A stretch of 20,335 bases of DNA from an uncultured Aminicenantes bacterium. GTDB lineage: Bacteria > Acidobacteriota > Aminicenantia > UBA2199. Below, piece after piece: positions 1-19,355 of this stretch. The translations under genes and the position numbers were made by a program. The stretch spans positions 1 through 20,335 of the forward strand of contig CBDAFS010000052.1 in the NCBI GenBank assembly GCA_965195285.1, in the 5' to 3' direction. The stretch's first letter is position 1; every line of letters starts with the position of its first letter. The notes under the pieces were generated by a model. That model did not search any database. It saw nothing but the letters and a program-made list of their open reading frames with translations, and was not told where the DNA came from.

Positions 1-264
1 TGGTCTTTCAATCCAAATTTTACCCGCATCATTTAAATTTGACAAATAATATATTATGGCCGTATGACCATCTCTTGCCATCTCCTGACTTCGTTGAATA
101 GACCATTCCACGGGTGGATTATCCAAGTCCGTCCCCTTTGCTGACCATCCTTCCATGTCATGTTCGAAAGAAAATAAATAATCGCCTTGCCATGGCGGAT
201 TGTTAACACATCCACCAAATAAGAATAGCAAACCAATTAATGGATATAATAAAAAGTGTCTCAT
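1..264 (-). CDS. Putative lipoprotein, cassette gene, 3' end outside the window (absent from ORF track)
   Basis: Manual translation from ATG at 264: MRHFLLYPLIGLLFLFGGCVNNPPWQGDYLFSFEHDMEGW...GKIWIERP, open for 88 codons to the edge. Hydrophobic signal ending in a lipobox-like FGGC; AAGGA upstream. Confidence 0.8.
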   Translation of the reverse strand, partial: MRHFLLYPLIGLLFLFGGCVNNPPWQGDYLFSFEHDMEGWSAKGTDLDNPPVEWSIQRSQEMARDGHTAIIYYLSNLNDAGKIWIERP

Positions 265-296
265 TACCACATTTCCTTATCCTCGCCCACTATGGC

Positions 297-391
297 AAAT
301 AACGATTCCAGCATATACGACGTTGCGACCGTAGGGAGCAATGTCCCGAAGGGCAAGGGCGTAAGCCCGCAGCTTATATGCTGAGTTATCT
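297..391 (-). repeat. attC-like site 1 (95 bp, GC-rich mini-hairpin type)
   Basis: AAATAAC (297-303) ... GTTATCT (385-391); arms CAGCATATA (309-317) / TATATGCTG (375-383); the stop codon of gene 386-997 overlaps the core. Confidence 0.85.
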
Positions 392-997
392 GCTGTTGAC
401 AATAGGTTTTTTACATAAATAAGCATGAAAAATATTAAGAATTATTTTCGATTCTTCAATAATGTCAAAGCCCGCTGCTCTCAACTCTTCTGCGAACTGA
501 GGCCAATCAAATCTCGATTCTTTAGGATGAGAAAAACGCAAGTACTTTTCCGCAAAATCCACGCCGCTCCTATTCACCTCTTCTATCAACAAAACTCCTT
601 TAGGCATTAATACTCGATATATTTCTCGAAGTGCTTTTCTCCATTCGGGAATATGGTGTAAGATACCAAACACAAAGACAGCATCATATTTATCTGAAGG
701 TGAATCTATTTCTGTAACATCGCCAACAAAAAATCTTGCTTTCTTATATCTTTTCTTAGCAAGTTCTATCTGTTCTGGCATTATATCGAAGGCTGTTAGT
801 TCTCTTGGGTTATATCTGGATCCTATTAGCTTTGTGCTGTATCCTGAACCACATCCAGCGTCAAGGATAGCACTACCGGTTAAATTTAGGTTATGCTTTT
901 CCAAAAACCTATTTAAAAGCCGAAATTCGATTCTTTTCTGAATCCACCTTCTGATAGGATTGTTCATTGAAATGAACTCAACCCGACTCAATCTCAT
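386..997 (-). CDS. Class I SAM-dependent methyltransferase (cassette)
   Basis: Motif I ILDAGCGSG, YDAVF, LHHI, EIYRVLMPKG; Shine-Dalgarno AAGGAG. Confidence 0.92.
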   Translation of the reverse strand: MRLSRVEFISMNNPIRRWIQKRIEFRLLNRFLEKHNLNLTGSAILDAGCGSGYSTKLIGSRYNPRELTAFDIMPEQIELAKKRYKKARFFVGDVTEIDSPSDKYDAVFVFGILHHIPEWRKALREIYRVLMPKGVLLIEEVNRSGVDFAEKYLRFSHPKESRFDWPQFAEELRAAGFDIIEESKIILNIFHAYLCKKPIVNSR

Positions 998-1024
998 TAA
1001 AAAATCTCCTTATACACCAATGAC

Positions 1025-1109
1025 AGCTAACAGTTGGCGTGTTTGCGAAGTGCGAGGCTTTGCCGAGCATTTTGGTGAGCGATAGCGAACCGCATACCCG
1101 CTGTTAGAC
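1025..1109 (-). repeat. attC-like site 2 (85 bp, family B)
   Basis: AGCTAAC ... GTTAGAC; arms GCGTGTTTGCG (1037-1047) / CGCATACCCGC (1091-1101); homologous to the site at 3231-3306. Confidence 0.85.
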
Positions 1110-1163
1110 GACCCGTTAGGGCAAAATTGCGTAGCAATTTTGAGTGCCGAAGCCCGCAAGAAA

Positions 1164-1751
1164 TTATTCATGATATTCATTGGGACTCTTCTGAAATATT
1201 ATGCTGAATCTTCGTCCAATTATGTTAATATTTGGTTTCTTTTCATAGATAATCTTAAAGTTATTTCTTCTCATATAATTAACAATGTCATCTTTTGGGA
1301 GACTCCATTTTTTAAAGAATTTAAACTCTGGAAACGCAAGATCATTTAAAACATAGAAACCATTTGGTCTTAAAACTCGACTTATTTCGTTTAATACTTT
1401 ATCCCAATCAGAGACTATGTGATGCAGAGCATCAGAGGATAAAATTAAATCATATTCGTTATCTTCGAATGGAAGTTTTGTAGCGTCTGCTTCAAGAAAT
1501 TTTAGATACTTTTTTTCTTTATGCTCTTTTTTTGCTCTCGCTATTTGTTCAGGATCTAAATCAATTCCTGTTACTTCCCATCCATATTTCTCAGCCAAAT
1601 ATGAAGAGAGCACTCCAATGCCGCATCCAACTTCTAACACTTGTTTAACATTGCTTAAATCAATTTGACTAAATAAATGTTCAAAAGTCTTTATATTACG
1701 AGTGTGTGCACTGGGATTTACAAATATTTTTTCAAGTTTGGACATCTTCAT
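1164..1751 (-). CDS. Class I SAM-dependent methyltransferase (cassette)
   Basis: VLEVGCGIG, DATKLPFEDNEYDLI, LHHI, EISRVLRPNG; Shine-Dalgarno AGGAGG. Confidence 0.92.
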   Translation of the reverse strand: MKMSKLEKIFVNPSAHTRNIKTFEHLFSQIDLSNVKQVLEVGCGIGVLSSYLAEKYGWEVTGIDLDPEQIARAKKEHKEKKYLKFLEADATKLPFEDNEYDLILSSDALHHIVSDWDKVLNEISRVLRPNGFYVLNDLAFPEFKFFKKWSLPKDDIVNYMRRNNFKIIYEKKPNINIIGRRFSIIFQKSPNEYHE

Positions 1752-1827
1752 TTTGAAAACCTCCTAATATTGATAATATTCTTATCTTTAATAAATTTAC
1801 TTTTTTTAAAGCGGGCATTGGCATTTC

Positions 1828-1957
1828 GTCTAACGGTGAGTGTAAGAATAGTAGCCGATTGCGGTGCAACTTCCTATCAAACCGTTACAAATTTGAAGCG
1901 GGCTACAAACGCCCAAAAACCTACTATAGCGGCTATTATTTTTACACATTGTTGTAG
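1828..1957 (-). repeat. attC-like site 3 (130 bp, family A)
   Basis: GTCTAAC ... GTTGTAG; arms GTGTAAGAATAGTAGCCG / CGGCTATTATTTTTACAC; homologous to 3871-4000, 5411-5540 and 8983-9112. Confidence 0.88.
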
Positions 1958-1961
1958 CCAG

Positions 1962-3212
1962 TTATTCCACTATTGACTTATACAATTCTTCTCTAAAATC
2001 TTCTTTTTCCATCTGGCTTGCTACTTGCTCCGCTTTACTCTTAAAGTAACTATTGTTTACCAATTCAAGAATTTTCGGTTCAAGGTTCTTCGTGGTAATT
2101 TTACCTATTTTAATCCCTTTTGGTCCGACACCCAAATTATAAATAATTCTATCCCATACAAATTGGTCAATAATATGTGGGATAATCATTGTTGCACATC
2201 CATATTTAAGTGTCAAATGGGTTGTACCAGAACCTCCATGATGGATTACGCCATAGATTTTTGGAAAAATCCAGTCGTATGGAATTTGAGAAACAAAATG
2301 TATTAGCTCAGAGTCAAATTTATCCAGTTGGACAAGACCTCCTGATGCTGTATTAATTATTGTATGAATTTTATTTCGTTCAAGTATATCAATAATTATT
2401 TTAGTCTTTTCTTCTGGTTCTGGATTTAACATACTACCAAAAGTGATGAATATGATTTTACTGTGTTTCTCTATAAAATCTGTTAATTTTTTGTCTGGTT
2501 GCCAGTTGACAGTTTTGTTCCTTTCGTAGTATCCCAATACTTTAAGATTCTCGTTCCAGTAATCCGGTCGTGAAAAAAGTGAGGGGGAAATTGTATAAAT
2601 TGCCTTATTCGACAAAAGAGCATTCTTTATCTGTTTTCGGGTTATTTTTCTTGTGATTTTCAACCATTTTTTTGAAATCATTACTGTCATGATAATCCCA
2701 AAATTCGCTAACGAAAAGGTTAGTTTATTTAAAAAAGGACCAAAATTGCTGTTAAAAACAACATGCGTATTATCTCTCACATAATGCAAATAAGGGCAAG
2801 CACATACAAGAATATTTTTTCCTCTGTTATTTAATCCCCAAATTATCGGGTAATTTACTTTCCCATTGTATACAATTCTATCGGGAATTTCGCTTTCAAT
2901 TATATCGTATTGCTTATCAGTTAGCTCTTTATTAGCTTCTGTCTGATTTTTAGCAAGTTTTACATAAGCAATAAATTTCTTTAATCCTGAGGCACTTCCT
3001 CCCATAGCTGCTTTTCCAACCTTACTGTTCAGCATCTCAATATATTTTGTACCCAAAGAGGCAAATTCCATATTTGAATCCTCCACAAGATTTCTAAATT
3101 GTTCAGGAAAAGCACAGATTACTTGATGTCCCTTTTCTTTCAATATTTCTCCAATTGCTAAAAAAGGTTCCATATCTCCACGAGTTCCAATTGATATTAA
3201 AATTATCTTCAT
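1962..3212 (-). CDS. GT-B fold family 1 glycosyltransferase (sterol glucosyltransferase / Glyco_transf_28-like) (cassette)
   Basis: N-terminal GTRGDMEPF, FITFGSM, and C-terminal nucleotide-sugar motif IHHGGSGTT...IIPHIIDQFVW. Confidence 0.92.
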   Translation of the reverse strand: MKIILISIGTRGDMEPFLAIGEILKEKGHQVICAFPEQFRNLVEDSNMEFASLGTKYIEMLNSKVGKAAMGGSASGLKKFIAYVKLAKNQTEANKELTDKQYDIIESEIPDRIVYNGKVNYPIIWGLNNRGKNILVCACPYLHYVRDNTHVVFNSNFGPFLNKLTFSLANFGIIMTVMISKKWLKITRKITRKQIKNALLSNKAIYTISPSLFSRPDYWNENLKVLGYYERNKTVNWQPDKKLTDFIEKHSKIIFITFGSMLNPEPEEKTKIIIDILERNKIHTIINTASGGLVQLDKFDSELIHFVSQIPYDWIFPKIYGVIHHGGSGTTHLTLKYGCATMIIPHIIDQFVWDRIIYNLGVGPKGIKIGKITTKNLEPKILELVNNSYFKSKAEQVASQMEKEDFREELYKSIVE

Positions 3213-3230
3213 CTGCGTTTTTCTAATTGG

Positions 3231-3306
3231 CTACAACGTTCTGCGTGTTTGCGAAGTGCTGCAGGCATTTCGTTGAGCGAAGCGAACCGCAAACACGCTG
3301 TTAGAT
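3231..3306 (-). repeat. attC-like site 4 (76 bp, family B)
   Basis: CTACAAC ... GTTAGAT; perfect arms GCGTGTTTGCG (3243-3253) / CGCAAACACGC (3288-3298). Confidence 0.88.
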
Positions 3307-3325
3307 GAAGTTGCTGTCATTACAC

Positions 3326-3841
3326 TCATAGAAGCTCCGGGTTTATAAATAAATCTATCCAAGGCGGTTTGTAGGTAAACCAGACATATAGAAAAGTTGA
3401 GACGATAAATAAAATAAGAATGACGATTTTAAAACTTGGAGTAACTGCACTCTCCTCAATATTCTTTTCCATTATTCCGCCCATAACTCCGGAAAAATAG
3501 GTACTAAAGATACCCCATAGTAATTCTAATACCAAAGATTCGATTCTTCCAAAGAAAGCAGGCACTAAATACCAAATAAGCACAACAAACCAAGGTACTA
3601 TTATTGTAGATAGTAACCTGGGATACCAAAAGGTTTCTCTCTTACTGAATTTTCTTCTCATTACAAAGTATTCAATCAAGCTGGCCAAAAGATAGGCCCA
3701 AAATGCCATTTTTAAATGTTGAAACACCGATTCGTTAATCCCGCAGAGTGGTGTAAGAAAAGCCCAATGAGTTAAATCATACCCAAAATGCAATATGGAA
3801 AAAACCACCAAATAAAGCAAGGATTTAATATATATGTTCAT
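3326..3841 (-). CDS. Integral membrane protein, DUF6512-like (cassette)
   Basis: About 5 hydrophobic segments; LHFGY...INESVFQHLKMAFW motif recalled from this family; strong Shine-Dalgarno AAGGAGGTG. Confidence 0.75.
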   Translation of the reverse strand: MNIYIKSLLYLVVFSILHFGYDLTHWAFLTPLCGINESVFQHLKMAFWAYLLASLIEYFVMRRKFSKRETFWYPRLLSTIIVPWFVVLIWYLVPAFFGRIESLVLELLWGIFSTYFSGVMGGIMEKNIEESAVTPSFKIVILILFIVSTFLYVWFTYKPPWIDLFINPELL

Positions 3842-3870
3842 CTTTTCACCTCCTTTGTGTCAGCAATTTC

Positions 3871-4000
3871 ATCTAACGGATGGCAATATGGCATGAAGCG
3901 GATTGAGAGTGATTCGCTATCAAACCGAGATGAAGTTGAAACGGGCTACAAGCCTTAATATCACTACTATATCGCCTATTTTTTATATACATTGTTGTGC
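3871..4000 (-). repeat. attC-like site 5 (130 bp, family A, left arm diverged)
   Basis: ATCTAAC ... GTTGTGC; shares TCAAACCG, GTTGAAACGGGCTACAA, ACTACTAT and TATACATTGTTG with other family A copies. Confidence 0.8.
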
Positions 4001-4012
4001 ATTCGTGCATTA

Positions 4013-4495
4013 TTATTTCATTTCTAACTCATTTACAAATCTTACAATTGCCTCAAAGTCAATCTCGGATATACTTTCCATAGAACCTGAAATTTTCTTC
4101 ACAAGAGCTCTTTCAAAAAAGTTCATTTTATCTAAATTATATTCATAACCTAATAGTGCAGTACTAGATGCATGTTTGCGAAGATCTTCAGAAAAAGCAT
4201 TCTCAAATTGCTCAATAGACTTTTCACCTTGCTCCATGCAACAAAGAAACAATCCCAATGTTTTTGTCAAAAGAATGCTTTTGTTAAACTCACAGAGTTT
4301 TTTTGTTTTTTTATGTACAGAAGCCATATGAATTGAGCCCCCAATTATTATCCTGTCAAAAGTCTCAATATCCTTAATCTTGTCTTTGCTTAGATTTATC
4401 AATTCAGTTTCATTTGGATTGAGCTTATCAGCAATTATCCTTGCTACTTTCTCAGTAGTTCCATGTTTAGATATGTAAATGATTCCTGTTTTCAT
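4013..4495 (-). CDS. Flavodoxin-domain protein (Flavodoxin_5 / HemG-like) (cassette)
   Basis: FMN-binding loop IIYISKHGTTEKVA, IIIGGSIH, LGLFLCC. Start placed at MKTGIIY (4495) because the ORF-track start at 4516 lies inside the collapsed attC. Confidence 0.85.
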   Translation of the reverse strand: MKTGIIYISKHGTTEKVARIIADKLNPNETELINLSKDKIKDIETFDRIIIGGSIHMASVHKKTKKLCEFNKSILLTKTLGLFLCCMEQGEKSIEQFENAFSEDLRKHASSTALLGYEYNLDKMNFFERALVKKISGSMESISEIDFEAIVRFVNELEMK

Positions 4496-4503
4496 TTCTT
4501 TCT

Positions 4504-4532
4504 GCATGATGTGCATTGTTGTGCGTTCGTGC
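4504..4532 (-). repeat. Collapsed attC remnant (cassette fusion scar)
   Basis: GCATGATG (4504-4511, identical to 5404-5411) nearly abuts CATTGTTGTGCGTTCGTGC (4514-4532, 18/19 identical to 3990-4008); the attC body is absent. Confidence 0.75.
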
Positions 4533-4533
4533 T

Positions 4534-5328
4534 TTAATTCATTGTATTATATTCTATATTTGATATTTTTCCTTTAATGTATTCAAAATCACCACCCTCA
4601 CTATGCCATATAGCTTTTATCTCACTTGGGAACTTTACACCATTTTTTTCAATATAATCATCCACCACAATCGACCATGGTATTTTTTTATATGTTCCAT
4701 CTTTTTCTGCATAATATCTGTCTTCTGTATAAAAGCTAATCATCTCTCCTATATCGTTAAAATTAAAAGTCCCACTTACCTTTATGTCATTATATGTTAA
4801 TGTTGCTTTAGCATTATTATCATCAACAGCTTCCCATTTTATATAATCTTGTAATGCGTAGGTTGAAATAATAAATGTCTCTGATAAAACCGTTACTAAT
4901 GCAGACTTGTCCATTTCCACACCTTTTGCATCGGCTACGGTAAATAATTTTAAGAGTTTAATAAGCATATTGCCTTTTCCGTTTTGGCATTTATCACGAG
5001 CTTCAAAAGGGAAAATTCCTAAAATGTTATTTTTCATATAAACAATTCTCGTTGGTTCAGAAACCGAATTATATTGATAACAGTTCAGTCGCATCCATTT
5101 GTTATCTGGTGCTCTTTTAAAAAAAACGTTTTCAAATTCGATTTTTGCATTAATCATTTTTACTTTGCCAATATAACCGCAATATCTAAAATATCTTTGA
5201 ACAGGTTTTGGCAAAGTCGCAATATCTTTTTCTTTTATGGTTTTTGTTGGAAAGTTAGAATACTTTTCAATATCAGTTTTAATTTCTGATAAATAAACAT
5301 TTTTCAGTGAACTACAGCTTGTCATCAT
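4534..5328 (-). CDS. DUF6544/DUF6920-like protein; a probable lipoprotein signal peptide is frameshifted upstream
   Basis: DIATLPKPVQRYFRYCG and WEAVDDNNAKAT motifs. The upstream ATG at 5372 is out of frame by one base at an A8 tract. Confidence 0.75.
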   Translation of the reverse strand: MMTSCSSLKNVYLSEIKTDIEKYSNFPTKTIKEKDIATLPKPVQRYFRYCGYIGKVKMINAKIEFENVFFKRAPDNKWMRLNCYQYNSVSEPTRIVYMKNNILGIFPFEARDKCQNGKGNMLIKLLKLFTVADAKGVEMDKSALVTVLSETFIISTYALQDYIKWEAVDDNNAKATLTYNDIKVSGTFNFNDIGEMISFYTEDRYYAEKDGTYKKIPWSIVVDDYIEKNGVKFPSEIKAIWHSEGGDFEYIKGKISNIEYNTMN

Positions 5329-5410
5329 AAGTGCTCCTATTATTATACTGATATTAATTATTTTTTTTCCATAATAAACTCAAATTATTCAGGTGATTCT
5401 CTGGCATGAT

Positions 5411-5540
5411 GCACAACGGTAAGTATAAGAATAGTAGCCGATTGCGGACTTCACTCCTGTCAAGTTACATGAAAGTTGAAGCGGGCTACAACCCTTGAAT
5501 TTACTACTGAACCGGCTATTATTTTTATACATTGTTGGCA
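5411..5540 (-). repeat. attC-like site 6 (130 bp, family A)
   Basis: GCACAAC ... GTTGGCA; 18 bp arms 5423-5440 / 5513-5530, with two G:T wobbles on the + strand. Confidence 0.9.
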
Positions 5541-5634
5541 TTTCGTTGTTTTAATGTAAACTAAAAATCAAATTCAAATTTTACATATAACCATTTTTTT
5601 ATGTTTAGATTTAAAAATGCAATGTTACTAAATT

Positions 5635-8043
5635 TTATTTATTTAAAAACATATCTACTCCGTCTATAGTTTGAAATGCTTTGGGCACATTATTGAATGT
5701 TTCAATTTTTATTATATTATCATATAAAGGATACTTCATATCAAGTTTAAACCCATTATCAGTAGTTTCTATTCTTCTGCAAGTAATTACATTACTGCTT
5801 TTACTTTCATGTTTTAAATAAACCATTGATAATTCATCAATATCACTCCAATCTAACATTGAAAATAAAAAAGGGATAAACTCTTTTGGGTAAACCGGTT
5901 CAGCGATATGATATTGATTATTTTTGAATTGTATCGTTTTGTTTTCTATATTTTGACTAAAAATTGTATCATTTTTAACAATATAACGAACGGGTGATAA
6001 TTTATCTGATAATTCTAAGATAGATATAGAATTACCGCTTTTTATATTTACACTCACCCCTTTATTCCTTTTAGAAAACCAAACTTGCATTGTTTTTTCA
6101 TTATCTTTTGATATATAATTTAATGTATCTGTAGGGATTTGATAATTGCAACGTTCATGAGTAAATGTTTTCTTGTGGTCTTTAATAATGGCAAAAAGTC
6201 GTGAATCAGGGTCATATTCAATGCTAATTGTTTTTGCTTCTATTGGTATTGTAAATTCCGATACTTTATCTTCAATATCTAAGGTTTTTCTGAAATTTTC
6301 GTTTTCAGTTTTAATATCTATTTCCAAAGGAAATATAAAAATGGGATCTTCCTGCCTTACTATAATTTTCAGCAAACTATTATTTCCTACAGTTTCTAAT
6401 TGCGTTTGTACATCTAAAACAGGATTTTCTTTTCTTTGAAGCCATTGTTCTTTAAAGAATTTTAAATCCTGCCCTGAAACATTTTCAAAAATTTTCATAT
6501 AATCATCAACGTTTGACAAGTTTGTACCATTCATTTCTCCTAATTTGAATAATGCTTTCTTGAAATTTTTTGTTCCGATTATTGTTTCGAGTACTCTATA
6601 AACCCATGCACCTTTTGAGTATGCAGACCAATATGTCGGAATACCGGTTGAAGTTATTTTTTCTAAAGGCTCTTCGTACAAATCAAAACAATGTAAGTAC
6701 TTTCTTTTTTGATTTTTCCAAAGGTCAGTATCATTTTTATGAGTGTGCAGATATTCAAAAGATAAAAAGTTTGTAAATCCTTCTTTTATCCAAAGAGAGT
6801 TTCCTTCTACTGTGGGTTGTGGTGCACCATGACTTACTTCGTGTAAATAACCCATACCACCGGTTCCGATTATTTCTGCATTTTGAGCTATAATAGAATG
6901 ACTGTCATTTAACAATCCACCTTTTACAAAATTATCTAATACAACAAAGTTGATACTAAATTTGCCAAAATTATTAAATTTCGTATTTATCCAATTTAAC
7001 AGTTGGTTTACTTCTGATATTATATAATCTTGCTCTTTTTTATCCTTTTTATTAAAGTAAAACCCTATATACGTATCACCTTTAATGATTTCTTTCTTCT
7101 CCCAATCGTTTTGTGCATAAAATGCAATATTATCCATCCAAGTGCCGCTAATGGAAGCCTTAAGTTTCTTTATTCCGTTGTTTGTCGTATCATTAATTAT
7201 ATTCCCATATTGCAAAAGTGTGTATGTTTCAGGATATTCATAATCGATTGTAAATTTTGTGCTGTCTTTAGAGAAAAAATTACGCCCTTCATTATTTGGC
7301 GGTGGAGATGGGATTGCCGCAAAGCCACCAAACCGAATAAAGAAATTATTATTACCCATACTGATAAATTGATTATTGGTATTAGGTGCTTTTAAGTTTC
7401 CCACTATTTTCAGGTGATATATGCCGGTAGAATTTGTTTTGTAATAAACTATATATCCAAACCTGTCGTAGGTGATATCTTTTCCATTCAATTGAAAACT
7501 CTTAATATTAAAGTTTTTTGCAAGTTTAAAAATTAGGTGTGGTGTCTTTAAGTTTATAGAAACTTCACTCTCAAAAGTATAAGTTTTGGTTATTGGGTCA
7601 ACATTTACATCTAAATCATAAGTTAAAAAATCGGGGTTTATTTCGTTCATATATCGTTTAGTAATCAGAAATTTACCTGAAATATTTTCAATTTTATAAA
7701 TACGATAAATAAAATCGAAATATTCATCATGATTATCACCATCGTAAGCATTATTATTAGTTGGGATATACATTAAAACACTAACCGCGTCTAATCTAAA
7801 AACTTTTGCTTTTGAAAAGTTTAAATGATTTCTTTTTAATTGATATTTCCAGCTTTCTATTTCTTCTTTAGCAAAATCTTCTTGAAAAAATTCTTTTATT
7901 AATTCAATATCGGACGTTTTTAGTGTTTCTTGGAAGTTTTGTTCCCATAAAACAGAAGTTGATTGTGCCAAACATAAAAAAGAAAAGCTTAATAAAAATA
8001 AAATAATGGCAACTTTCCGGATTCTATTCATAAAATAATTCAT
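5635..8043 (-). CDS. Secreted M1-family zinc aminopeptidase (cassette)
   Basis: Signal peptide; gluzincin motif YLHEVSH followed by WIKEGFTNF; catalytic Tyr in AYSKGAWV; IEYDPDSRL. Confidence 0.88.
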   Translation of the reverse strand: MNYFMNRIRKVAIILFLLSFSFLCLAQSTSVLWEQNFQETLKTSDIELIKEFFQEDFAKEEIESWKYQLKRNHLNFSKAKVFRLDAVSVLMYIPTNNNAYDGDNHDEYFDFIYRIYKIENISGKFLITKRYMNEINPDFLTYDLDVNVDPITKTYTFESEVSINLKTPHLIFKLAKNFNIKSFQLNGKDITYDRFGYIVYYKTNSTGIYHLKIVGNLKAPNTNNQFISMGNNNFFIRFGGFAAIPSPPPNNEGRNFFSKDSTKFTIDYEYPETYTLLQYGNIINDTTNNGIKKLKASISGTWMDNIAFYAQNDWEKKEIIKGDTYIGFYFNKKDKKEQDYIISEVNQLLNWINTKFNNFGKFSINFVVLDNFVKGGLLNDSHSIIAQNAEIIGTGGMGYLHEVSHGAPQPTVEGNSLWIKEGFTNFLSFEYLHTHKNDTDLWKNQKRKYLHCFDLYEEPLEKITSTGIPTYWSAYSKGAWVYRVLETIIGTKNFKKALFKLGEMNGTNLSNVDDYMKIFENVSGQDLKFFKEQWLQRKENPVLDVQTQLETVGNNSLLKIIVRQEDPIFIFPLEIDIKTENENFRKTLDIEDKVSEFTIPIEAKTISIEYDPDSRLFAIIKDHKKTFTHERCNYQIPTDTLNYISKDNEKTMQVWFSKRNKGVSVNIKSGNSISILELSDKLSPVRYIVKNDTIFSQNIENKTIQFKNNQYHIAEPVYPKEFIPFLFSMLDWSDIDELSMVYLKHESKSSNVITCRRIETTDNGFKLDMKYPLYDNIIKIETFNNVPKAFQTIDGVDMFLNK

Positions 8044-8108
8044 TGCTTAAATCTCCTCATTTGATTTATAAAATTATTTAGTAATTTTATTATTCTTTTG
8101 ACAATGAA

Positions 8109-8239
8109 TGCCAACGATTGCAATATGAAATGTTGGGCGTTTTAAAACACAAGTCCTTCAATTTACTACACCGTTTATTTATTGCTAATTTGTTCATATT
8201 TACCACTTTCTGCCCAATTTTTTATATTGCGTGTTGTAC
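8109..8239 (-). repeat. attC-like site 7 (131 bp, divergent family A-like)
   Basis: TGCCAAC ... GTTGTAC; arms GCAATATGAAATGTTGGGC / GCCCAATTTTTTATATTGC. Confidence 0.82.
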
Positions 8240-8247
8240 ACCGTACT

Positions 8248-8922
8248 TTATCTTCCATTGCTAATTTGATGAAATCTTCGGGCAATCATAAATAACCATA
8301 TTGAAGTTGGTATTAATGATGTCAAAGCAAATATCATCCCTATCATTCCAACTGTTGATGGAACCAACATTAATATACCAGATATAAGTCCAATGTATGC
8401 AATCTTTTTACTAAATACTTTATTTGTAATCATCGCTACTGAAAATAATATTAATGAAAGTCCATTCAAGATATAATAGACACCAAATGCAGTCCCTTTG
8501 TATAGGGTAAGCATAACTTTTCCCGTAGTCAATAAAATTGTTTTCTGTTCATTCGACTCTGCCAACAGGAATTGATTACTTATAGACATCATTTCAAAAG
8601 ACACATTAGAAATGAAATAAACAGCTACTCCAATCAAGCCAAGAGTTAACGCAATCGTTGCAATTGACTTATGTGTATTTGATAATACTGCAAAAAATGC
8701 AAGATATAAATATCCCATAAACAAAACGGTCAACAAATAAAGAATGTCAAGATTTAACAATCCAATTATTGCATTGTCTTGAAAGACCAAATAGAAATCC
8801 AAAACCTCAGTTGGTGGTGACCATAACATAAAAATTACAATCTGAACAGGAATTAATCCCAATGTAATCCACGCAATAATCCCCGATGATTTATATAATA
8901 TATTCCAATTATTTGTTTCCAT
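8248..8922 (-). CDS. Polytopic membrane protein, DUF4386-like (cassette)
   Basis: About 6 hydrophobic helices; family call from overall resemblance only. Confidence 0.65.
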   Translation of the reverse strand: METNNWNILYKSSGIIAWITLGLIPVQIVIFMLWSPPTEVLDFYLVFQDNAIIGLLNLDILYLLTVLFMGYLYLAFFAVLSNTHKSIATIALTLGLIGVAVYFISNVSFEMMSISNQFLLAESNEQKTILLTTGKVMLTLYKGTAFGVYYILNGLSLILFSVAMITNKVFSKKIAYIGLISGILMLVPSTVGMIGMIFALTSLIPTSIWLFMIARRFHQISNGR

Positions 8923-8982
8923 TTTATTCTAATTTTTTATCGTTTTTAAGTTAAATTTCTATCTATCGTTCATTCGTATGGT

Positions 8983-9112
8983 GTACAACGTTAAGTATAA
9001 GAATAGTAGCCGACTGCGGTGCAATTCACTTTCAATTTACGACAAAGTTGATACGGGCTAAAACCCTTGAATTTACTACTGTCTCGGCTATTATTTTTAT
9101 ACATTGTTGTGC
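8983..9112 (-). repeat. attC-like site 8 (130 bp, family A)
   Basis: GTACAAC ... GTTGTGC; arms GTATAAGAATAGTAGCCGA / TCGGCTATTATTTTTATAC. Confidence 0.9.
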
Positions 9113-9118
9113 GGTCGT

Positions 9119-10318
9119 TCATTGTTTAATTCCATCTACATACTTAATTGTTTTCTCAATTTTCCCATCTTTTGTCCAATAAGACCAGACATCATTTTTT
9201 AATCTATTTTTAAAATGTCCTTCTACCTTTATGTTACCACTTTCATAATATTCTAAATATCTACCATCAATAATTTCAGGATTTAAGCTTGAATAATATG
9301 CTATCCCCTGTAAAGTATCATTCACGAAATAATCTTTCATTATATAATGCTTAGAGGTCGTGTCTTTTTCTATTCTTCTATAATATTTTGCTTTATTTTC
9401 CCTTGTTGTAAGCTTCCAATGTTTATCAAGTAATATTTTTTCAGCATTTTCTGATAGATATTTATCATCATGTATCTCAATGTTCTTTCTATTTTTTATT
9501 GTTGATTGAACAAGATCAGATAAGAAGTATGAATGTTTCCCTTTTTCTAATTCTTTTTGTAGGTTGATTTGAGTAATTTGAGAAAAATCACCATTAATAC
9601 TTATAAAAATATCCCCTGAATTTAAATCGGAAACTGTTGAGTATATTGTTCTTGCAAAAATATTGTTTTGATGAGTAGCATTGAGAATTGAAAAGAAATT
9701 TTCAACAGTTAAGTCCTGTTTTTTTAATTGCTTTGTTGTTTTCTTATATCTTCCGCTACCAATGTTGTACCAATGAAAGTTTTCCATATCTTCTTTACAT
9801 GAAATTCTGAAGTTTGTACAAACTTGATATTTGTTTGTATTTCTAGTAACTGTTAATTTATTGTTGTGATAGGTAATTATTGCACTTTCTCCAGTTTTAT
9901 CGACAACCATAAGTTGTGCTAGTCGAAATCCTTCCCAATAATATTTTTTAAAAAGACCTATAACATCATCAACGGTGGCACATTCTTCTGAAATTTTATA
10001 AAGAACATTACCTCCAATATCGAATCTATTATTATCGTTATTAATTTCAGTATATGGATATGCTCTTAAACCATCCCAGAATAATCCTTTTTCATTAATA
10101 CCTGCTTGAACCGAGCCATTATAACCAAACATAGCATATCCATATCGGTCATTTTGGGCAGGAATAAACCAAACCTGTGAATTTCTTTTTTTATAATCTT
10201 CATTGCTTCCAACTAAAGTCCTTTTGCCATTTGTGCTCATAAAAACTGTACACCCGTATAATTGGATGCTTGTTTGCCAAAGAAGCAGTAAAAATAATAT
10301 TGATATAGTTCTTTTCAT
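9119..10318 (-). CDS. Secreted Ntn-hydrolase (linear amide C-N hydrolase / C45-C59-like) with C-terminal MORN-variant (YwqK-like) repeats; first cassette of the array
   Basis: Signal peptide then nucleophile Cys in CTVF, GSNED, GINEKGL, TNF, TIYSTV; C-terminal DGRYLEYYESGNIKVEGHFKN...WSYWTKDGK. Confidence 0.82.
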   Translation of the reverse strand: MKRTISILFLLLLWQTSIQLYGCTVFMSTNGKRTLVGSNEDYKKRNSQVWFIPAQNDRYGYAMFGYNGSVQAGINEKGLFWDGLRAYPYTEINNDNNRFDIGGNVLYKISEECATVDDVIGLFKKYYWEGFRLAQLMVVDKTGESAIITYHNNKLTVTRNTNKYQVCTNFRISCKEDMENFHWYNIGSGRYKKTTKQLKKQDLTVENFFSILNATHQNNIFARTIYSTVSDLNSGDIFISINGDFSQITQINLQKELEKGKHSYFLSDLVQSTIKNRKNIEIHDDKYLSENAEKILLDKHWKLTTRENKAKYYRRIEKDTTSKHYIMKDYFVNDTLQGIAYYSSLNPEIIDGRYLEYYESGNIKVEGHFKNRLKNDVWSYWTKDGKIEKTIKYVDGIKQ

Positions 10319-10347
10319 TTTTATAATTCTCCATTTTTCAGAATGCC

Positions 10348-10445
10348 GCCTAACGTATGTGTATGTCTACAAGTAGACATATTTTTCCTATATCCTTCTG
10401 AAAAGGTAGATATATACACTTAAAATTGGAAGTATATATCTACCT
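10348..10445 (-). other. Array head: attI-like junction with tandem palindromes
   Basis: Core GCCTAAC (10348-10354; GTTAGGC on the minus strand) has no partner GTT closing an attC. It is followed by TATGTCTAC-AA-GTAGACATA (10362-10381) and AGGTAGATATATAC-N14-GTATATATCTACCT (10404-10445). Confidence 0.55.
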
Positions 10446-10556
10446 ATTTTTATTTTGATCTAAAAAATATTATTCTTACAGATAAACCAATTTTATTCAT
10501 TTCTAATATCCAAATTATTTAAAAGACTTTAATTTTCTCCATTCCTCTTTTCGTAA

Positions 10557-10585
10557 AATATAATTCAATAAATAAGCAATGTCAA
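10557..10585 (-). promoter_or_regulatory. Putative sigma70 promoter driving the cassette array (Pc-like)
   Basis: Minus strand TTGACA (10585-10580) - 17 nt - TATATT (10562-10557), pointing into the array. Confidence 0.65.
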
Positions 10586-10772
10586 GATTTTTTGTGCACT
10601 GGCTGGCCTCATTCGCCACCTATTTACTGACAGATTAAATTAAAGAAACCTTTTCCAATTTAAAAAGATTAAAAACATCACCAGGGGGAACAGAAATATA
10701 GTTGGACAATTCAAAAATTAAATATTATATTTGTCAACTTCTTATCTTATTTTATGATACTTCTTATAAAAC

Positions 10773-10801
10773 TTGACCAAATCGATGTTTTAAAATAGAA
10801 T
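10773..10801 (+). promoter_or_regulatory. Putative sigma70 promoter of the cinA operon
   Basis: TTGACC (10773-10778) - 17 nt - TAGAAT (10796-10801). Confidence 0.6.
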
Positions 10802-10837
10802 GATCTCAGATTAACGATCCGTGTTCAGGAAAAAAAC

Positions 10838-12082
10838 ATGAGAGCCATATTTATTGCAGTGGGAAGTGAATTACTGGAACTGGACCGCATGGATACCAAT
10901 TCTCTCTATGTATCAAGAAAATTGAGAGAAAAGGGTATTTTAATGGACATGAAGATAACGGTCGGAGACAACCTTGAAAATTTATCCTGGACAATCAAGA
11001 ATGCCTGCAAACGTGCGCAACTGGTAATCATTACCGGTGGTCTCGGACCTACTGAAGATGATATCACCCGGGAAGGAGTTGCCAGTGCTTTAAAAAAGCA
11101 ATTAACCTTTAAGGAAGAAATTGTCAGTAAAATCAGAGCTGTTTTCCAAAAAAGAGGAATTAAAATGCCCGACATCAATACCCGTCAGGCATTTGTTATT
11201 GAAGGGGCTGAGGTACTTCCCAATTCAGTGGGAACCGCACCGGGGCAATACCTTGATGAAAAGGATTGTAAAATTTTATTACTTCCGGGTCCACCCAGAG
11301 AAATGCAGCCCATGTTTGAGGATATCTTCGCCAGGAAAATCGCACCCTTGTCCAATTTTCTCATTGCCAGTAGAAGTTTGAAATTTGCCGGAATTACCGA
11401 ATCTGAAACCGACTCCATGATTGCGGACCTGTATACGAAATATAAAAATCCCCATACAACCATTCTGGCTTCTCCAGGATTCATTGAAATTCATTTACTG
11501 GGAAGATCTAAAAAATCTTCGGAAGAAAACAAAGCAATCACCGATCAACTGGCTGAAAAAATAAAAGCAAGGCTGGCTGATTATTTTATCACTGAAAAAG
11601 ATATCACCTTTGAAGAACACATAATTCAATTATTATACACAAGAAACCTAACGTTAAGCATCGCAGAAAGTTGCACAGGTGGTGGTCTGGGAAACCGGAT
11701 TACCAATGTGCCGGGCAGTTCTGAAGTTTTTTTAGGTGGCGTAATCGCTTACTCCAATGAGTTGAAAATAAAAATTCTGGGGGTCAAAAAGGGAACCCTG
11801 GAAAAAAAAGGAACCGTGTCCAAACAAACAGCCCTGGAAATGGCCACCGGAATACGACGTTTGTGTCAATCTGATATCGGGATAGCCATTACCGGAATTG
11901 CAGGTCCCGGAGGCGCCACTCAGGGTAAGCCGGTGGGGCTGGTTTGCCTGCATTTAAGCAGTGAAGAAACCGAGCAGGGAGTTCAAAAAATCTTTTCAGG
12001 TGACCGTCAGATTGTAAAAATTCGAAGTGAAAATTATTGTTTAAACCTGATCAGACAATATCTTCATCATCATCAGAATTGA
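10838..12082 (+). CDS. cinA: Competence/damage-inducible protein CinA (MoCF-like domain + PncC NMN deamidase domain)
   Basis: IAVGSELL, DTNS, ITGGLGPTEDDITRE, LPGPPREM, AESCTGG, AITGIAGPGG...KPVGLV. Confidence 0.96.
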   Translation: MRAIFIAVGSELLELDRMDTNSLYVSRKLREKGILMDMKITVGDNLENLSWTIKNACKRAQLVIITGGLGPTEDDITREGVASALKKQLTFKEEIVSKIRAVFQKRGIKMPDINTRQAFVIEGAEVLPNSVGTAPGQYLDEKDCKILLLPGPPREMQPMFEDIFARKIAPLSNFLIASRSLKFAGITESETDSMIADLYTKYKNPHTTILASPGFIEIHLLGRSKKSSEENKAITDQLAEKIKARLADYFITEKDITFEEHIIQLLYTRNLTLSIAESCTGGGLGNRITNVPGSSEVFLGGVIAYSNELKIKILGVKKGTLEKKGTVSKQTALEMATGIRRLCQSDIGIAITGIAGPGGATQGKPVGLVCLHLSSEETEQGVQKIFSGDRQIVKIRSENYCLNLIRQYLHHHQN

Positions 12083-12804
12083 ATCGAAATCCCGTGGATG
12101 TAACTGTCAATTATTTTTTTAAAAAAAAAGTCATTGTGCTGCAGCAAAGGAAAGGATATCGTTTCTCGATTGATTCTCCTATACTGGCTCATTTCCTTCC
12201 CTCATCACGAAAGGCTGAAGCGCTGGAAATCGGACCCGGTTGCGGAATAATCTCAATATTGGCATTGTATAAAAAAAAGTTTTCTCATATCACCGGACTG
12301 GAAATCCAGGAGGATTTGTGTCGCCTATCTGAAACCAACGCCCGGAAAAATCAATTCTCAAAATTCTATACTGCTTTAAATGGAGATTTTAATCATTTGT
12401 ACCAGGATTTCAGAGGAATCAAATGGATCTTTTCAAACCCTCCTTTTATGAAATTAAACCAGGGACGATTAAGTGCTAATAATGCTATCAGAATCGCCAA
12501 ATTTGAAGTAAGCCTTACCATTCAAAGTCTATTGGAAAAATCATATTCAATTCTGGATCCGGAAGGGCAAATGTGTTTGATTTTGCCCTATTCCAGGTTA
12601 AAAGAATTGCTAAATATGGCAATCGAAATCGGTTTTTTTTTAAAAAGAATTCAAATGGTTTTTTCATTTAAAAATGGAAAACCCGAACGTTTTTTGATAC
12701 AATTATCAAAATATAAGGTTTCAGCGGACAAGATTAATCCATTGATTATTTTCAAGGAAAAAGGTATTTATACCAAAGAAATGGAAATGATACTGACAGG
12801 ATAA
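12079..12804 (+). CDS. tRNA1(Val) adenine(37)-N6 methyltransferase-like protein (TrmN6/YfiC family)
   Basis: QQRKGYRFSIDSPILAHF, LEIGPGCGII, EIQ, FSNPPF, IAKFE. Start uncertain; a TTG overlapping the cinA stop was chosen. Confidence 0.85.
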   Translation: MNRNPVDVTVNYFFKKKVIVLQQRKGYRFSIDSPILAHFLPSSRKAEALEIGPGCGIISILALYKKKFSHITGLEIQEDLCRLSETNARKNQFSKFYTALNGDFNHLYQDFRGIKWIFSNPPFMKLNQGRLSANNAIRIAKFEVSLTIQSLLEKSYSILDPEGQMCLILPYSRLKELLNMAIEIGFFLKRIQMVFSFKNGKPERFLIQLSKYKVSADKINPLIIFKEKGIYTKEMEMILTG

Positions 12805-12808
12805 TAAA

Positions 12809-13618
12809 ATGATTGAAAAGTTCAAAGAGTTGTATAAATACAGACAGCTTATTTTTATACTGGTATCCCGTGAGTTAAAAGCCAGATACCGAGGAACTAT
12901 CTTCGGATTTTTATGGAGTTTTCTAAATCCTTTTCTTCTGATGCTGGTGTACTCGATCGTATTTGGTATTATCATGCCGGCCAGATGGCCACAATTTGAG
13001 GGCAAAACGATATACTATTCTATATTCCTTTTTACCGGAATACTGCCCTGGACATGGTTTTCTTCCTCCATGTTGGAATCAGCAAATGTTCTGATAATTT
13101 ACGGAAATTTGATAAAAAAAATCAAATTTCCCATCGAAGTTTTACCCATTATGGTGGTCCTCACCAATATGATTCATTTTATTCTCGGTCTGCCAATCTT
13201 AATTCTATTTTTTATTGTTTTTGCCAAACCCCTGACCGGATGGGTTCTGTTTCTCCCGGCAGCCATGGTTATTCAATTTATTTTCACCATGGGATTCGGT
13301 TTCTTTATATCAGCTCTTACCGTTCATTTTCGGGACATCAAGGATATTCTTTCAAATCTGATGACACTGTGGTTTTTTTCAACCCCGATAATATATCCTT
13401 TCGATTCACCGCATGTTACGGGAAGAGGATGGATAAAACTATTACTCTGGTTAAACCCCATGACCCATATAATCGAAGCCTATCAATATGCTTTTTATTA
13501 TGGATCATTACCGCACTGGAAAAAATTATCAGTCACCGTTCTGGTGGGTTTCTTGCTCTTTTATTTTGGATACAAAATATTTGATAAACTCAGAGATACA
13601 ATTGTTGAAGAGGTATAA
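12809..13618 (+). CDS. wzm: ABC-2 polysaccharide exporter permease (Wzm/RfbA/TagG family)
   Basis: RELKARYRGTIFGFLWSFLNP, FRDI, FSTPIIYP, LNPMTHII; multiple TM helices. Confidence 0.92.
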   Translation: MIEKFKELYKYRQLIFILVSRELKARYRGTIFGFLWSFLNPFLLMLVYSIVFGIIMPARWPQFEGKTIYYSIFLFTGILPWTWFSSSMLESANVLIIYGNLIKKIKFPIEVLPIMVVLTNMIHFILGLPILILFFIVFAKPLTGWVLFLPAAMVIQFIFTMGFGFFISALTVHFRDIKDILSNLMTLWFFSTPIIYPFDSPHVTGRGWIKLLLWLNPMTHIIEAYQYAFYYGSLPHWKKLSVTVLVGFLLFYFGYKIFDKLRDTIVEEV

Positions 13619-13619
13619 A

Positions 13620-14870
13620 ATGTATCCAATTGTCATCAACAATATTGGCAAATACTATAAGAAATATTCACATAAACATAAATTCTTAACTATAAAAAGC
13701 GCTTTGGTCAACAAAACCTTATTCTCAGATTTGGAAAGAGATGAAAAGTTTGAAGTACTGAAAGGAATCAGTTTTAATGTTGAAAATGGAAAAACATTAA
13801 GTATTATTGGAGAAAACGGTTCTGGAAAAAGTACACTTTTAAAGATTCTGGCTGGAATCACCAGACCCACTTCTGGAGAGATCACTACCAGGGGAAGAAT
13901 TTCCGCATTGATTGAATTGGGAGCCGGGTTCCATCCTGAAATTTCTGGAAGAGAAAATATTTTTATTAACGGCATAATCCTGGGATTATCCAAAAAGATG
14001 ATACAGGAAAAACTCTCAAAAATTGTTGAATTTTCCGAGTTGGAAGAATTCATCAACAGTCCGGTAAAGACATACTCCTCTGGAATGTACATGAGGTTGG
14101 GATTCTCCATAGCCATCAATGTGGATCCGGATATCCTTCTGATTGATGAAGTGTTGGCTGTTGGCGATGCATTTTTTGTGCCCAAATGCATTGATAAAAT
14201 TTATGAATTCAAGAGGAAAGGTAAAACAATTATTTTTGTTTCACATGATCTGGCCACAGTTGAAAAAATCAGCGACGAGGTGATTTGGCTTAAAAAAGGC
14301 CAAATTGAAATGAGAGGGTATCCGGCCAAAGTGGTTGATGCCTATATGCAATATATTGGGGAGAAAGAAGAAAAACGAGAGGGAAAACCGGCAGAAGTAA
14401 GCACTGAAAACAGATGGGGATCCAAAGAAATAGAGATAAATAATGTTAAAATTCTGAACCGCGACGGAAAAGAAAAATATATATTTAAACCTAAAGAACC
14501 AATGATTATAGAATTTGATGTAATTACAAAACAAAAAGAGGATGATTTTGTATTTGGACTGGCCATTTATAATCCAGAAGGAATACTTTGTTATGGCTCG
14601 AATACAATCCTGGAAAACTACAGATCTTATCACATTGAAGGAAAAGGGAAGGTGAAAATTCAAATCCCTGAACTTCCTCTCATCAATGGAATGTACTTCC
14701 TGGACCTTGCCGTCCACAAAAAGGACGGTTACCCCTTTGATTACCACCATTTTCAGTATAAATTTAAGGTATCATCAAAATTAAAAGATCTTGGAATAAC
14801 CCGGATTCCTCACCAATGGAAGTTTACGGATAATATCAAGGTGAGATCGTTCAAACCAAAAAAACAATGA
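13620..14870 (+). CDS. wzt: ABC polysaccharide exporter ATPase with C-terminal Wzt_C carbohydrate-binding domain
   Basis: Walker A GENGSGKST, ELGAGFHPEISGREN, YSSGMYMRLGF, Walker B LLIDEVLAVGD; RWGS-led C-terminal domain. Start ATG 13620 follows the wzm stop. Confidence 0.93.
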   Translation: MYPIVINNIGKYYKKYSHKHKFLTIKSALVNKTLFSDLERDEKFEVLKGISFNVENGKTLSIIGENGSGKSTLLKILAGITRPTSGEITTRGRISALIELGAGFHPEISGRENIFINGIILGLSKKMIQEKLSKIVEFSELEEFINSPVKTYSSGMYMRLGFSIAINVDPDILLIDEVLAVGDAFFVPKCIDKIYEFKRKGKTIIFVSHDLATVEKISDEVIWLKKGQIEMRGYPAKVVDAYMQYIGEKEEKREGKPAEVSTENRWGSKEIEINNVKILNRDGKEKYIFKPKEPMIIEFDVITKQKEDDFVFGLAIYNPEGILCYGSNTILENYRSYHIEGKGKVKIQIPELPLINGMYFLDLAVHKKDGYPFDYHHFQYKFKVSSKLKDLGITRIPHQWKFTDNIKVRSFKPKKQ

Positions 14871-15346
14871 AAATTTTCAGAGATTATTCCCAATTAAACC
14901 GGCAATTAAAAAAACATAAACATAGAAAAATTGCCTTTACCAATGGTGTTTTTGATATCCTTCATCCCGGTCACATCGAATTACTGGAATTTGCCAAATC
15001 AAAGGGGGACCTTCTCATAGTGGGCATCAATGATGATCAATCGGTAAAAAGAATAAAGGGTAATAATCGGCCCATCTTTTCACTCAAGGAGAGAATAGAG
15101 GTTTTGAAGGCTATTGAATATGTTGACTTTATCATTCCTTTTTCCCAAGATACTCCGCTTGAATTAATTCAACAATTATATAAGCTCGATATTCTGATAA
15201 AGGGAGGAGATTATCAACCGTCCGAAGTGGTGGGGAAAAATGAAGTTGAAACAGCAGGAGGCGAGCTCATCATTTTCAAGTTTAAATCTCCAATTTCAAC
15301 CACTTCGACAATCAATAAAATCAAAGCCCTCTGCTCAAGTAATTGA
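14867..15346 (+). CDS. rfaE2: D-glycero-beta-D-manno-heptose 1-phosphate adenylyltransferase (RfaE domain II, standalone)
   Basis: FTNGVFDILHPGH, VGINDDQSVKRIKG..RPI, KGGDY, STTSTINKI. Confidence 0.9.
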   Translation: MKIFRDYSQLNRQLKKHKHRKIAFTNGVFDILHPGHIELLEFAKSKGDLLIVGINDDQSVKRIKGNNRPIFSLKERIEVLKAIEYVDFIIPFSQDTPLELIQQLYKLDILIKGGDYQPSEVVGKNEVETAGGELIIFKFKSPISTTSTINKIKALCSSN

Positions 15347-15436
15347 TAGTTTTTATAAATTTATTATTCAAGGTGATTGCAATTTTTTATGATTGCCAAA
15401 GGCTTACAGGCTGCGATATTCATCAGAATTCTCAAT

Positions 15437-15465
15437 TTGACAAATAAAAACACATATGCTAAAAG
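15437..15465 (+). promoter_or_regulatory. Possible promoter of the phosphatase-kinase-FHA operon
   Basis: TTGACA (15437-15442) - 17 nt - TAAAAG, preceded by TGn; the -10 is imperfect. Confidence 0.4.
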
Positions 15466-15518
15466 AGAATATAATACCATTTGGATACCAGAATACCTAT
15501 TAAAACGGTAATTATATA

Positions 15519-17378: not shown

Positions 17379-17379
17379 A

Positions 17380-18718: not shown

Positions 18719-18734
18719 ATACCGGAAAACGAAA

Positions 18735-19241: not shown

Positions 19242-19321
19242 ATTATTTATCACAGGGTGAAAAGATCGTCAATTTCGACATCAGGAAATCCAAAAAACGT
19301 TGAGCTGTCTTTGAAGCAAAT

Positions 19322-19349
19322 TTGAAGCCACCTCCTTTTTTGTTATAAT
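19322..19349 (+). promoter_or_regulatory. Extended -10 promoter of ispG
   Basis: TTGAAG (19322-19327) - 16 nt - TATAAT (19344-19349), with TGn extension. Confidence 0.65.
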
Positions 19350-19355
19350 GAATAG

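Follow-up and report, generated by a model that had tools for sequence, protein, structure and literature searches.

The window analysed here, the whole 20,335-nt stretch of contig CBDAFS010000052.1 from an uncultured Aminicenantes bacterium, carries on its minus strand an integron-like array of gene cassettes whose head lies in front of the gene cinA. An earlier note on this DNA had described at least nine minus-strand cassette units, a head junction at 10354 and cinA beyond it, and this layout was confirmed. Eight complete hairpin sites (297-391, 1025-1109, 1828-1957, 3231-3306, 3871-4000, 5411-5540, 8109-8239 and 8983-9112, belonging to cassettes 8 to 1, respectively) and the head junction with crossover base 10354 delimit eight whole cassettes of 640-2698 bp and a ninth that is clipped by the window edge. 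The array holds 10 minus-strand open reading frames (ORFs) in 1-10318, and a 519-nt gap separates their end at 10318 from the start of cinA at 10838. Neither Pfam on 20 proteins nor tblastn with six recombinases (best E 0.62) revealed an intact tyrosine recombinase in the window, as the note had stated, but a recombinase remnant that it had missed lies within 10355-10837. We read the locus, with a probability of about 0.78, as a non-canonical integron-like head of a type typical of Bacteroidota, positioned upstream of cinA in Ca. Aminicenantes and with its integrase deleted. This reading draws on features taken from the sequence, namely the anatomy, the self-matching of the cassettes, the GTT breakpoints, compensatory pairing, a bottom-strand bias and the recombinase stub.

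Cassette array, head and recombinase stub

The ends of the cassettes identify them as units. The 12 nt outside the 5′ core of each cassette matched the 3′ core flank of that same cassette (summed score 46), whereas the flank now faced in the array gave a summed score of -7, and the self-match score was equalled by 1 of 40,320 permutations. A strict hairpin scan recovered four of the eight window sites with 0 matches in 491,898 bp of cinA-flanking control loci, where a looser scan gave four isolated matches.

The head itself is formed by an attI-like site on the minus strand (10351-10381), in which a 9-bp inverted repeat (10362-10381) ends in TA, followed by 7 nt and GTT (TA-N7-GTT), with the crossover predicted after the G at 10354. 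A 14-bp perfect inverted repeat at 10404-10445 may be an accessory site or possibly a terminator-like hairpin. Comparison of the platform with plasmids returned only AT-rich noise. One cinA genome scan yielded 33 loci, and 16 of the 23 at ≥57% identity were labelled Ca. Aminicenantes. Among these loci, L001 (DAOVIP010000046.1; cinA 94%, right flank 95.4% identical over 8755 nt) shares 10351-10644 with the window at 89% identity. At the head, 30 of 30 nt are the same before the GTT and 8 of 30 after it, indicating a different first cassette, and no integrase was found between head and cinA in L001. The comparison of relatives that the note had proposed thus uncovered the same head in front of another cassette. 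The model of the family sites gave 0 matches in L001-L033, including 15 loci at ≥57% identity with at least 5 kb upstream, and the genes upstream of cinA in other relatives are housekeeping or unrelated. Because L001 shares the head but not the first cassette, and the other loci lack family sites, the platform is lineage-restricted and its first cassette variable. Between this platform and cinA, the region 10645-10771 contains ~114 nt without counterpart in L001 and two further plus-strand promoter-like matches toward cinA.

A candidate sigma-70 promoter, TTGACA-17-TATATT (10557-10585, minus strand), faces the array with 11 of 12 consensus positions, and two hairpins lie between it and cassette 1. 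L001 keeps both hexamers, with 4 of 17 spacer positions changed. The promoter sequence named in the note is present, but promoter-like matches are so abundant in 10300-10860 (7 versus 3.9 ± 1.9 expected) that we treat it as a consensus match only.

The -10 hexamer of this candidate overlaps the start of the recombinase stub (10493-10563, minus strand), which is what is left of the gene for a TnpF-like SAM_4 tyrosine recombinase, its final ~20 codons, and is co-directional with the cassettes. The stub is frameshifted in the window and in frame in L001, where the last 19 TnpF residues match upstream of cinA. That region of L001 gave E 3e-5 with a TnpF query versus E 0.84 with an IntI1 query. With a tail profile built from 88 distinct C-termini of family recombinases, the L001 stub was the sole significant match (E 4.1e-6) in a set of 20,909 six-frame peptides, the next one having E 3.7, and it is identical at 15 of 17 residues to the C-termini of P0126 and P0177. 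From the stop of the stub to the GTT there are 137 nt, inside the 38-171 nt range of intact systems. Searching the head with a full-length hidden Markov model (HMM) detected the C-terminal stub only (next match E 0.07), and we conclude that the recombinase gene was deleted in place, its catalytic part gone. The note had reasoned that an intI remnant in 10355-10837 would make the array ordinary; a recombinase remnant does occur there, but it is not IntI. Its picture of cinA standing where the integrase should be assumes a divergent intI, whereas the family recombinase is co-directional with the cassettes, and cinA is merely the neighbour.

The same head bears on the idea that the array was nucleated at a secondary chromosomal (attG) site next to a host promoter, with an integrase encoded elsewhere. 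IntI is reported to insert cassettes at GWT sites and close to promoters (10.1101/2022.09.11.507474), and no array is present at cinA in other Aminicenantes. However, the head is not a bare genomic GWT outside a platform, since it has a recombinase 3′ end, the family spacing and an inverted repeat with TA-N7-GTT, which argues that it arrived as a platform. We consider nucleation at an attG site extremely improbable, and instead of the secondary site envisaged in the note, the head is the family's native insertion site. The window shows every sequence feature by which we define the Bacteroidota type: family sites, a TA-N7-GTT head and a co-directional recombinase 3′ end.

All cassettes are oriented on the minus strand. 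Cassette 1 (8989-10353) encodes a 399-aa C45/CBAH-type Ntn hydrolase with a MORN repeat (9119-10318), equal in length to its closest relatives; it has 46 near-full-length relatives, and the four named ones are Bacteroidales or Marinilabiliaceae. A DUF4386 membrane protein (8248-8922) occupies cassette 2 (8115-8988) and an 802-aa M1 peptidase-domain protein (5635-8043) cassette 3 (5417-8114). Cassette 4 (3877-5416) contains a DUF6544 ORF (4534-5328) and a flavodoxin-like ORF (4013-4516), and the half site at 4515-4532 between them makes it likely that two cassettes were fused; together with the mismatched arms of site 3871-4000 (5 of 16 Watson-Crick pairs), this half site suggests cassette fusion and a chimeric site. 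Also in cassette 4, at 5328-5374 (minus strand), an upstream ATG precedes an A run out of frame with the DUF6544 ORF, and the stretch between the two resembles a lipoprotein signal region; decay, phase variation or a sequencing error could account for this. The distal cassettes encode DUF6512 (cassette 5, 3237-3876; ORF 3326-3841), a GT28/EryCIII-like glycosyltransferase (cassette 6, 1834-3236; ORF 1962-3212) and two SAM methyltransferases (cassette 7, 1031-1833; ORF 1164-1751; and cassette 8, 303-1030; ORF 386-997). The clipped cassette 9 (1-302) holds a lipoprotein-like ORF (1-270, open) without family. Between the cassette 7 ORF and its site, at 1111-1160, there is a further hairpin of 9 bp (1122-1142) as well as another GTTAG core. 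Rfam gave no match on the window, and no tRNA genes were found. A reading of the array as a defence island was dropped after PADLOC on the 10 cassette proteins returned generic methyltransferase matches only. The host boundary (10773-12082, plus strand), outside the element, is formed by cinA (10838-12082) with its own promoter-like site at 10773-10801. The flank (10838-20335) continues with housekeeping genes: after cinA, a TrmN-like methyltransferase, a Wzm/Wzt transporter, a cytidylyltransferase, PP2C, a Ser/Thr kinase, FHA, FolK and IspG.

Hairpin sites without extrahelical bases

Canonical attC sites are described as having extrahelical bases on the R''-L'' arm (PMC2727003, PMC3053210). 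In all eight window sites, canonical L-box pairing reached 2-5 of 7 positions, versus 7 of 7 in two R388 attC controls. The best pairing register of the window sites was ungapped, with one of the eight pairing poorly under it, and the R' arm is longer by 2 nt (four sites) or 4 nt (three sites). The window-site spacers are 3/5 (as in the site of cassette 1) or 1/5 (as in the short site of cassette 5), and across 40 distinct family sites the 18-bp inner stem is contiguous and unbulged. A long-type site matched plasmids of Persicobacter, Riemerella, Myroides and Chondrinema (9 records in total), with 86% identity between site 8983-9112 and a Persicobacter site in a recombinase-headed array, and the five long window sites could be aligned with Bacteroidota sites. 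A phage search with one long site gave no match. The three short sites (297-391, 1025-1109 and 3231-3306), which lie toward the distal end, are GC-richer, have the 1/5 spacer and are unlike the five long sites, and cassette GC is 0.37-0.39 toward the distal end versus 0.28-0.31 near the head; these differences might point to a second donor pool.

Compensatory changes were examined in an alignment of 41 sites, five from the window and the others picked by a pairing scan, in which 15 of 21 pairs showed two-sided changes. Paired cells made up 94.6% of this alignment versus 33-49% in slid controls, a fraction that is partly built in, the aligned sites having been chosen by the pairing scan. In 19 sites from outside the window, mismatches turned into G.T 30 times on the bottom strand and once on the top strand; for the window sites these counts were 13 and 5, and bottom-strand folding was better than top-strand folding in all eight window sites. 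The covariation and the G.T bias in turn favour recombination of a folded bottom strand. In attC without extrahelical bases, the spacer alone can reportedly still set strand choice (PMC2727003), which makes the lopsided loop plausible as an orientation cue.

These site data also speak to the array as an ordinary cluster of attC sites lacking an integron integrase (CALIN), that is, canonical attC cassettes that stayed in place when a classical intI was lost. The array shares with CALINs and their single-site counterparts (SALIN), as with attG insertions, a cassette cluster without an integrase gene in cis. The GTT crossover, hairpin sites, promoterless single-ORF cassettes and bottom-strand bias would all fit, the attI1 site has the same TA-N7-GTT geometry, and CALINs are reported to be common and mostly without intI pseudogenes (10.1101/030866). 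It is the L-box pairing, below that of the R388 controls in every site, and the co-directional stub, which matches the insertion-less family best and TnpF far better than IntI1, that make this explanation very improbable; the sites are not canonical attC, a point on which the note needs correcting. Moreover, the array differs from CALIN, SALIN and attG cases in keeping a native head and stub and, probably, in head turnover after the loss. Since the origin of CALINs by loss, trans action or rearrangement is already among published ideas (10.1101/030866, PMC8618304, 10.1101/2022.09.11.507474, 10.1101/2022.02.06.479319), an integrase-less array alone would be ordinary; what is out of the ordinary is the system to which this one belongs.

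Recombinase-headed arrays and captured genes elsewhere

Intact counterparts occur on plasmids. Plasmid pPP2 of Persicobacter psychrovividus contains at least 84 family sites over 102 kb, on one strand throughout, and this array is headed by a tyrosine recombinase that points into it and crosses the record origin. The latter gene is absent from the gene table because it spans that origin, and the array (L034, L038 and L039; NZ_AP025294.1 300583-402511) is superintegron-sized and made of mostly hypothetical genes. Related recombinases, annotated only as xerA or site-specific integrase, were found on nine more plasmid loci, from Persicobacter, Chryseobacterium, Chondrinema, Fulvitalea, Pontibacter and Rufibacter. 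Co-directional ORFs follow the recombinases at these nine loci and follow tnpF before tet(X3); at 11 other heads, as for the window stub, the recombinase is co-directional with the cassettes. The site model gave downstream co-directional matches in 6 of 9 recombinase loci, and none upstream or antisense in those tested. All 13 heads are TA-N7-GTT, 38-171 nt past the recombinase stop, and TA occupied positions -9/-8 in every one of the 13, compared with 111 of 1136 background GTT, with 6 of the 13 junctions fixed independently by shared-platform breakpoints and 7 picked by eye. Breakpoints at GTT like that between the window and L001 separate the Bacteroidota pairs L049/L054 (29 versus 6 of 30 nt the same before and after) and L051/L052 (30 versus 10 of 30 nt).

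The family recombinases lack the IntI insertion: the spacing between two motifs was 66-67 residues in 190 of the 193 family proteins (out of 233) in which it could be measured, whereas IntI1 has 108 residues there and the IntI of a Shewanella phage 107. The insertion is described as not fully conserved in an integron-like subgroup by Smyshlyaev et al. (PMC8138268). Against the integron-integrase model TIGR02249 the family recombinases scored 206-216, under the cut-off of 265, and they scored near the cut-off of a XerA-like model. Their best solved relative by sequence, top or tied, is VchIntIA (2A3V), with archaeal XerA also among the nearest structures. The family recombinases carry an extra N-terminal domain with weak HARP/UvsW likeness (of 10 proteins, 2 with Pfam E ~1e-5 and 3 with weak matches; Z 6.3 to the N-terminal part of T4 UvsW; no named family in Atlas). 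HARP domains bind branched DNA, and the HARP-like identity is a lead only. P0214, P0133 and their relatives vary in length between ~350 and 570 aa, owing to one or more HARP-like domains at the N-terminus. A tree of the recombinases, which holds two IntI rows only (a further IntI class search gave IntI1 only) and is unresolved inside, placed the recombinases paired with IS91 on a separate branch with 80/83 support.

These IS91 (Y2) pairs suggest another way of moving the cassettes, either by rolling circle through recombinase-plus-IS91 pairs or as double-stranded Xer/dif-like modules, and not as folded strands by the head recombinase. Such pairs, whose recombinase is a related SAM_4 protein likewise without the IntI insertion, sit among family sites in Myroides, Persicobacter and Chryseobacterium; the outer flanks of each cassette are long inverted repeats, and the scores near the XerA-like cut-off fit as well. 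By contrast, pairs head no array and lie antisense inside arrays, the two recombinase-plus-IS91 loci of Clostridium and Novosphingobium gave no sites with the site model, and breakpoints occur at a head behind a solo recombinase. That the sites covary strongly while their sequence is little conserved, and that the G.T bias favours one strand, also fits a folded single strand, and we regard rolling-circle or Xer/dif-like movement as improbable. At L036, L041, L049, L050, L053, L054 and L055, recombinase-plus-IS91 pairs, group II introns (ltrA) and IS110 were seen inside arrays, mostly antisense, a parallel to the attC-targeting introns and insertion sequences of classical integrons.

Compared with a classical integron, where intI adjoins attI and is usually divergent from the cassettes (exceptions exist), the system shows clear likenesses: ordered promoterless cassettes with crossover within GTT, a simple attI-like site at the array head whose breakpoint is fixed by L001, bottom-strand-favouring hairpin sites with inverted AAC...GTT cores and an unpaired central spacer, and a recombinase of SAM_4 plus catalytic domain. 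It differs in its sites, which lack extrahelical bases and have 3/5 or 1/5 instead of 5/6 spacers, in its recombinase, which lacks the ~40-residue IntI insertion and has the HARP-like extension, and in its layout, with the recombinase co-directional and ending just before the head. The array would work in the manner of an integron, but because it departs in three defining features (insertion, extrahelical bases and layout), we file it neither as a classical integron nor as a CALIN.

The family can also be related to gene capture in Riemerella anatipestifer. There, aph(3')-IVb taken up by transformation was reported to integrate together with 27 bp of upstream and 140 bp of downstream sequence, independently of homology and by a mechanism that the authors left unresolved; they describe a stem-loop resembling attC and saw no mobile element less than 100 kb from the target (PMC13148043). 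The same report covers lnu(H) and blaRATA, which likewise integrated without homology, and it names pRCAD0416RA-1 as an aph(3')-IVb carrier; the donor used was another strain, for which the 140-bp region was reported identical (PMC13148043). On pRCAD0416RA-1, we located the limits of the integrated unit inside GTT at -29 and +139, both ending successive family sites found by the model. The mobile unit in Riemerella thus corresponds, as judged from these limits, to one cassette of this family, although the available portions of that paper name no recombinase, head site or family and do not remark on the non-canonical anatomy (PMC13148043).

The tnpF-tet(X3) module of Acinetobacter plasmids shares the recombinase family, head geometry and site type with the window, as do the Bacteroidota plasmid arrays; there the recombinase gene is present, whereas the window keeps a stub, belongs to another phylum and has a sigma-70-type promoter. 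In the module (L042:7836-9964, NZ_CP041297.1; L056), tet(X3) lies at a TA-N7-GTT head 171 nt after tnpF, a 5′-truncated recombinase gene. A truncated family site comes next, and tet(X3) therefore resembles the leading cassette of a platform that was captured. Resistance clusters of Riemerella and Myroides (L045, NZ_CP073240.1; L035; L036) are interspersed with family sites, with 14 site-model matches on one strand throughout in L045, and comprise aadS, lnu(I), OXA, tet(X), estT, aph, MYO-1 and relE-HTH.

A head that may have outlived its recombinase

An intact system of this family consists, in one direction, of a TnpF-like SAM_4 recombinase with its HARP-like N-terminal extension, 38-171 nt, the attI-like site and the cassettes. 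Each site would fold on its bottom strand into an outer stem, an asymmetric 3/5 or 1/5 loop and an unbulged inner stem, with the lopsided loop and the G.T wobbles standing in for extrahelical bases as the orientation cue, and the recombinase would excise circles and insert them at the GTT of the head. At this locus the recombinase gene probably lost all but its final ~20 codons before the lineages of the window and of L001 parted, and what may be a sigma-70-type promoter now faces the array.

Besides the partly built-in pairing and the junctions picked by eye, several observations weigh against this reading. Taken by itself, the stub of the window scores weakly (HMM E 5.2), so that its assignment depends on orthology to L001; 5 of 1000 shuffles attained its DNA score, and one further position in the window surpassed it. 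Plasmid searches with two of the three short sites gave no match, the site model gave none behind the recombinase in L053-L055, and in Flagellimonas (L043) the sites lie upstream and on the other strand. An unbiased, noisy self-match put the picked junction first in 8 of 12 cases only, with that of the window second of 2. Moreover, the array-heading recombinases do not form one clade in the tree, the pairing of recombinase with sites is deduced from sequence alone, and L001, with 254 nt beyond the junction, is the sole relative that shares the locus.

Nor has a trans-acting recombinase been located, the host genome beyond the window not having been searched, and this leaves room for a frozen relic of the same family, in which the recombinase was lost, nothing acts any longer, and the first cassette of L001 predates the loss or came by region transfer. 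Decay of the stub has gone further in the window than in L001, the platform is 89% identical versus 95.4% for the host flank, and cassette 4 has its half site, mismatched site and out-of-frame upstream ATG; given the half site, the poorly paired site and the frameshifted stub, the note's argument against decay was slightly overstated. On the other hand, the same upstream gene part is missing in both genomes, which indicates one loss before the cassette change, and the ORFs are long and open, that of cassette 1 being of the same length as its closest relatives. The 34 nt adjoining the GTT are identical between the window and L001, versus 32 differences in the other 262 columns, which is weak alone. 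A relic is in our view unlikely. Because the window and L001 share the loss and differ in the first cassette, a recombinase probably acted later and in trans, one of the options named in the note; the cassette change after the deletion would most simply, and quite probably, be due to a family recombinase encoded elsewhere or passing through. That the head is still being serviced in trans is likewise probable.

Whether the family amounts to a widespread, undescribed second integron lineage is, in our estimate, an even question. Such a lineage would combine an insertion-less SAM_4 recombinase and HARP-like domain with bulge-free sites, form arrays as long as 100 kb in Bacteroidota, make tet(X), MYO-1, OXA, aadS, estT and aph(3')-IVb mobile, share cassettes across phyla, leave trans-active integrase-less heads and escape IntI/attC-based detection. 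In the literature we found no description of the system beyond the Riemerella report, and subscription papers, including those on lnu(H) and blaRATA, may describe it. IntegronFinder surveys are reported to have found almost no complete integrons in Bacteroidetes (PMC9024848), in contrast to one Persicobacter plasmid with at least 84 such sites and several resistance plasmids built from them. If true, the reading would name the recombinase and head site for homology-independent gene capture in Riemerella, and tnpF-tet(X3) would become an integron-like head that was captured along with the first of its cassettes. It would also provide a natural example of cassettes recombining when both extrahelical bases and the IntI insertion are absent, with implications for the origin of integrons from simpler recombinases. 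Systems of this kind include carriers of resistance genes, tet(X) among them; what the window contributes is a host from another phylum and a head that seems to have lasted longer than its integrase.

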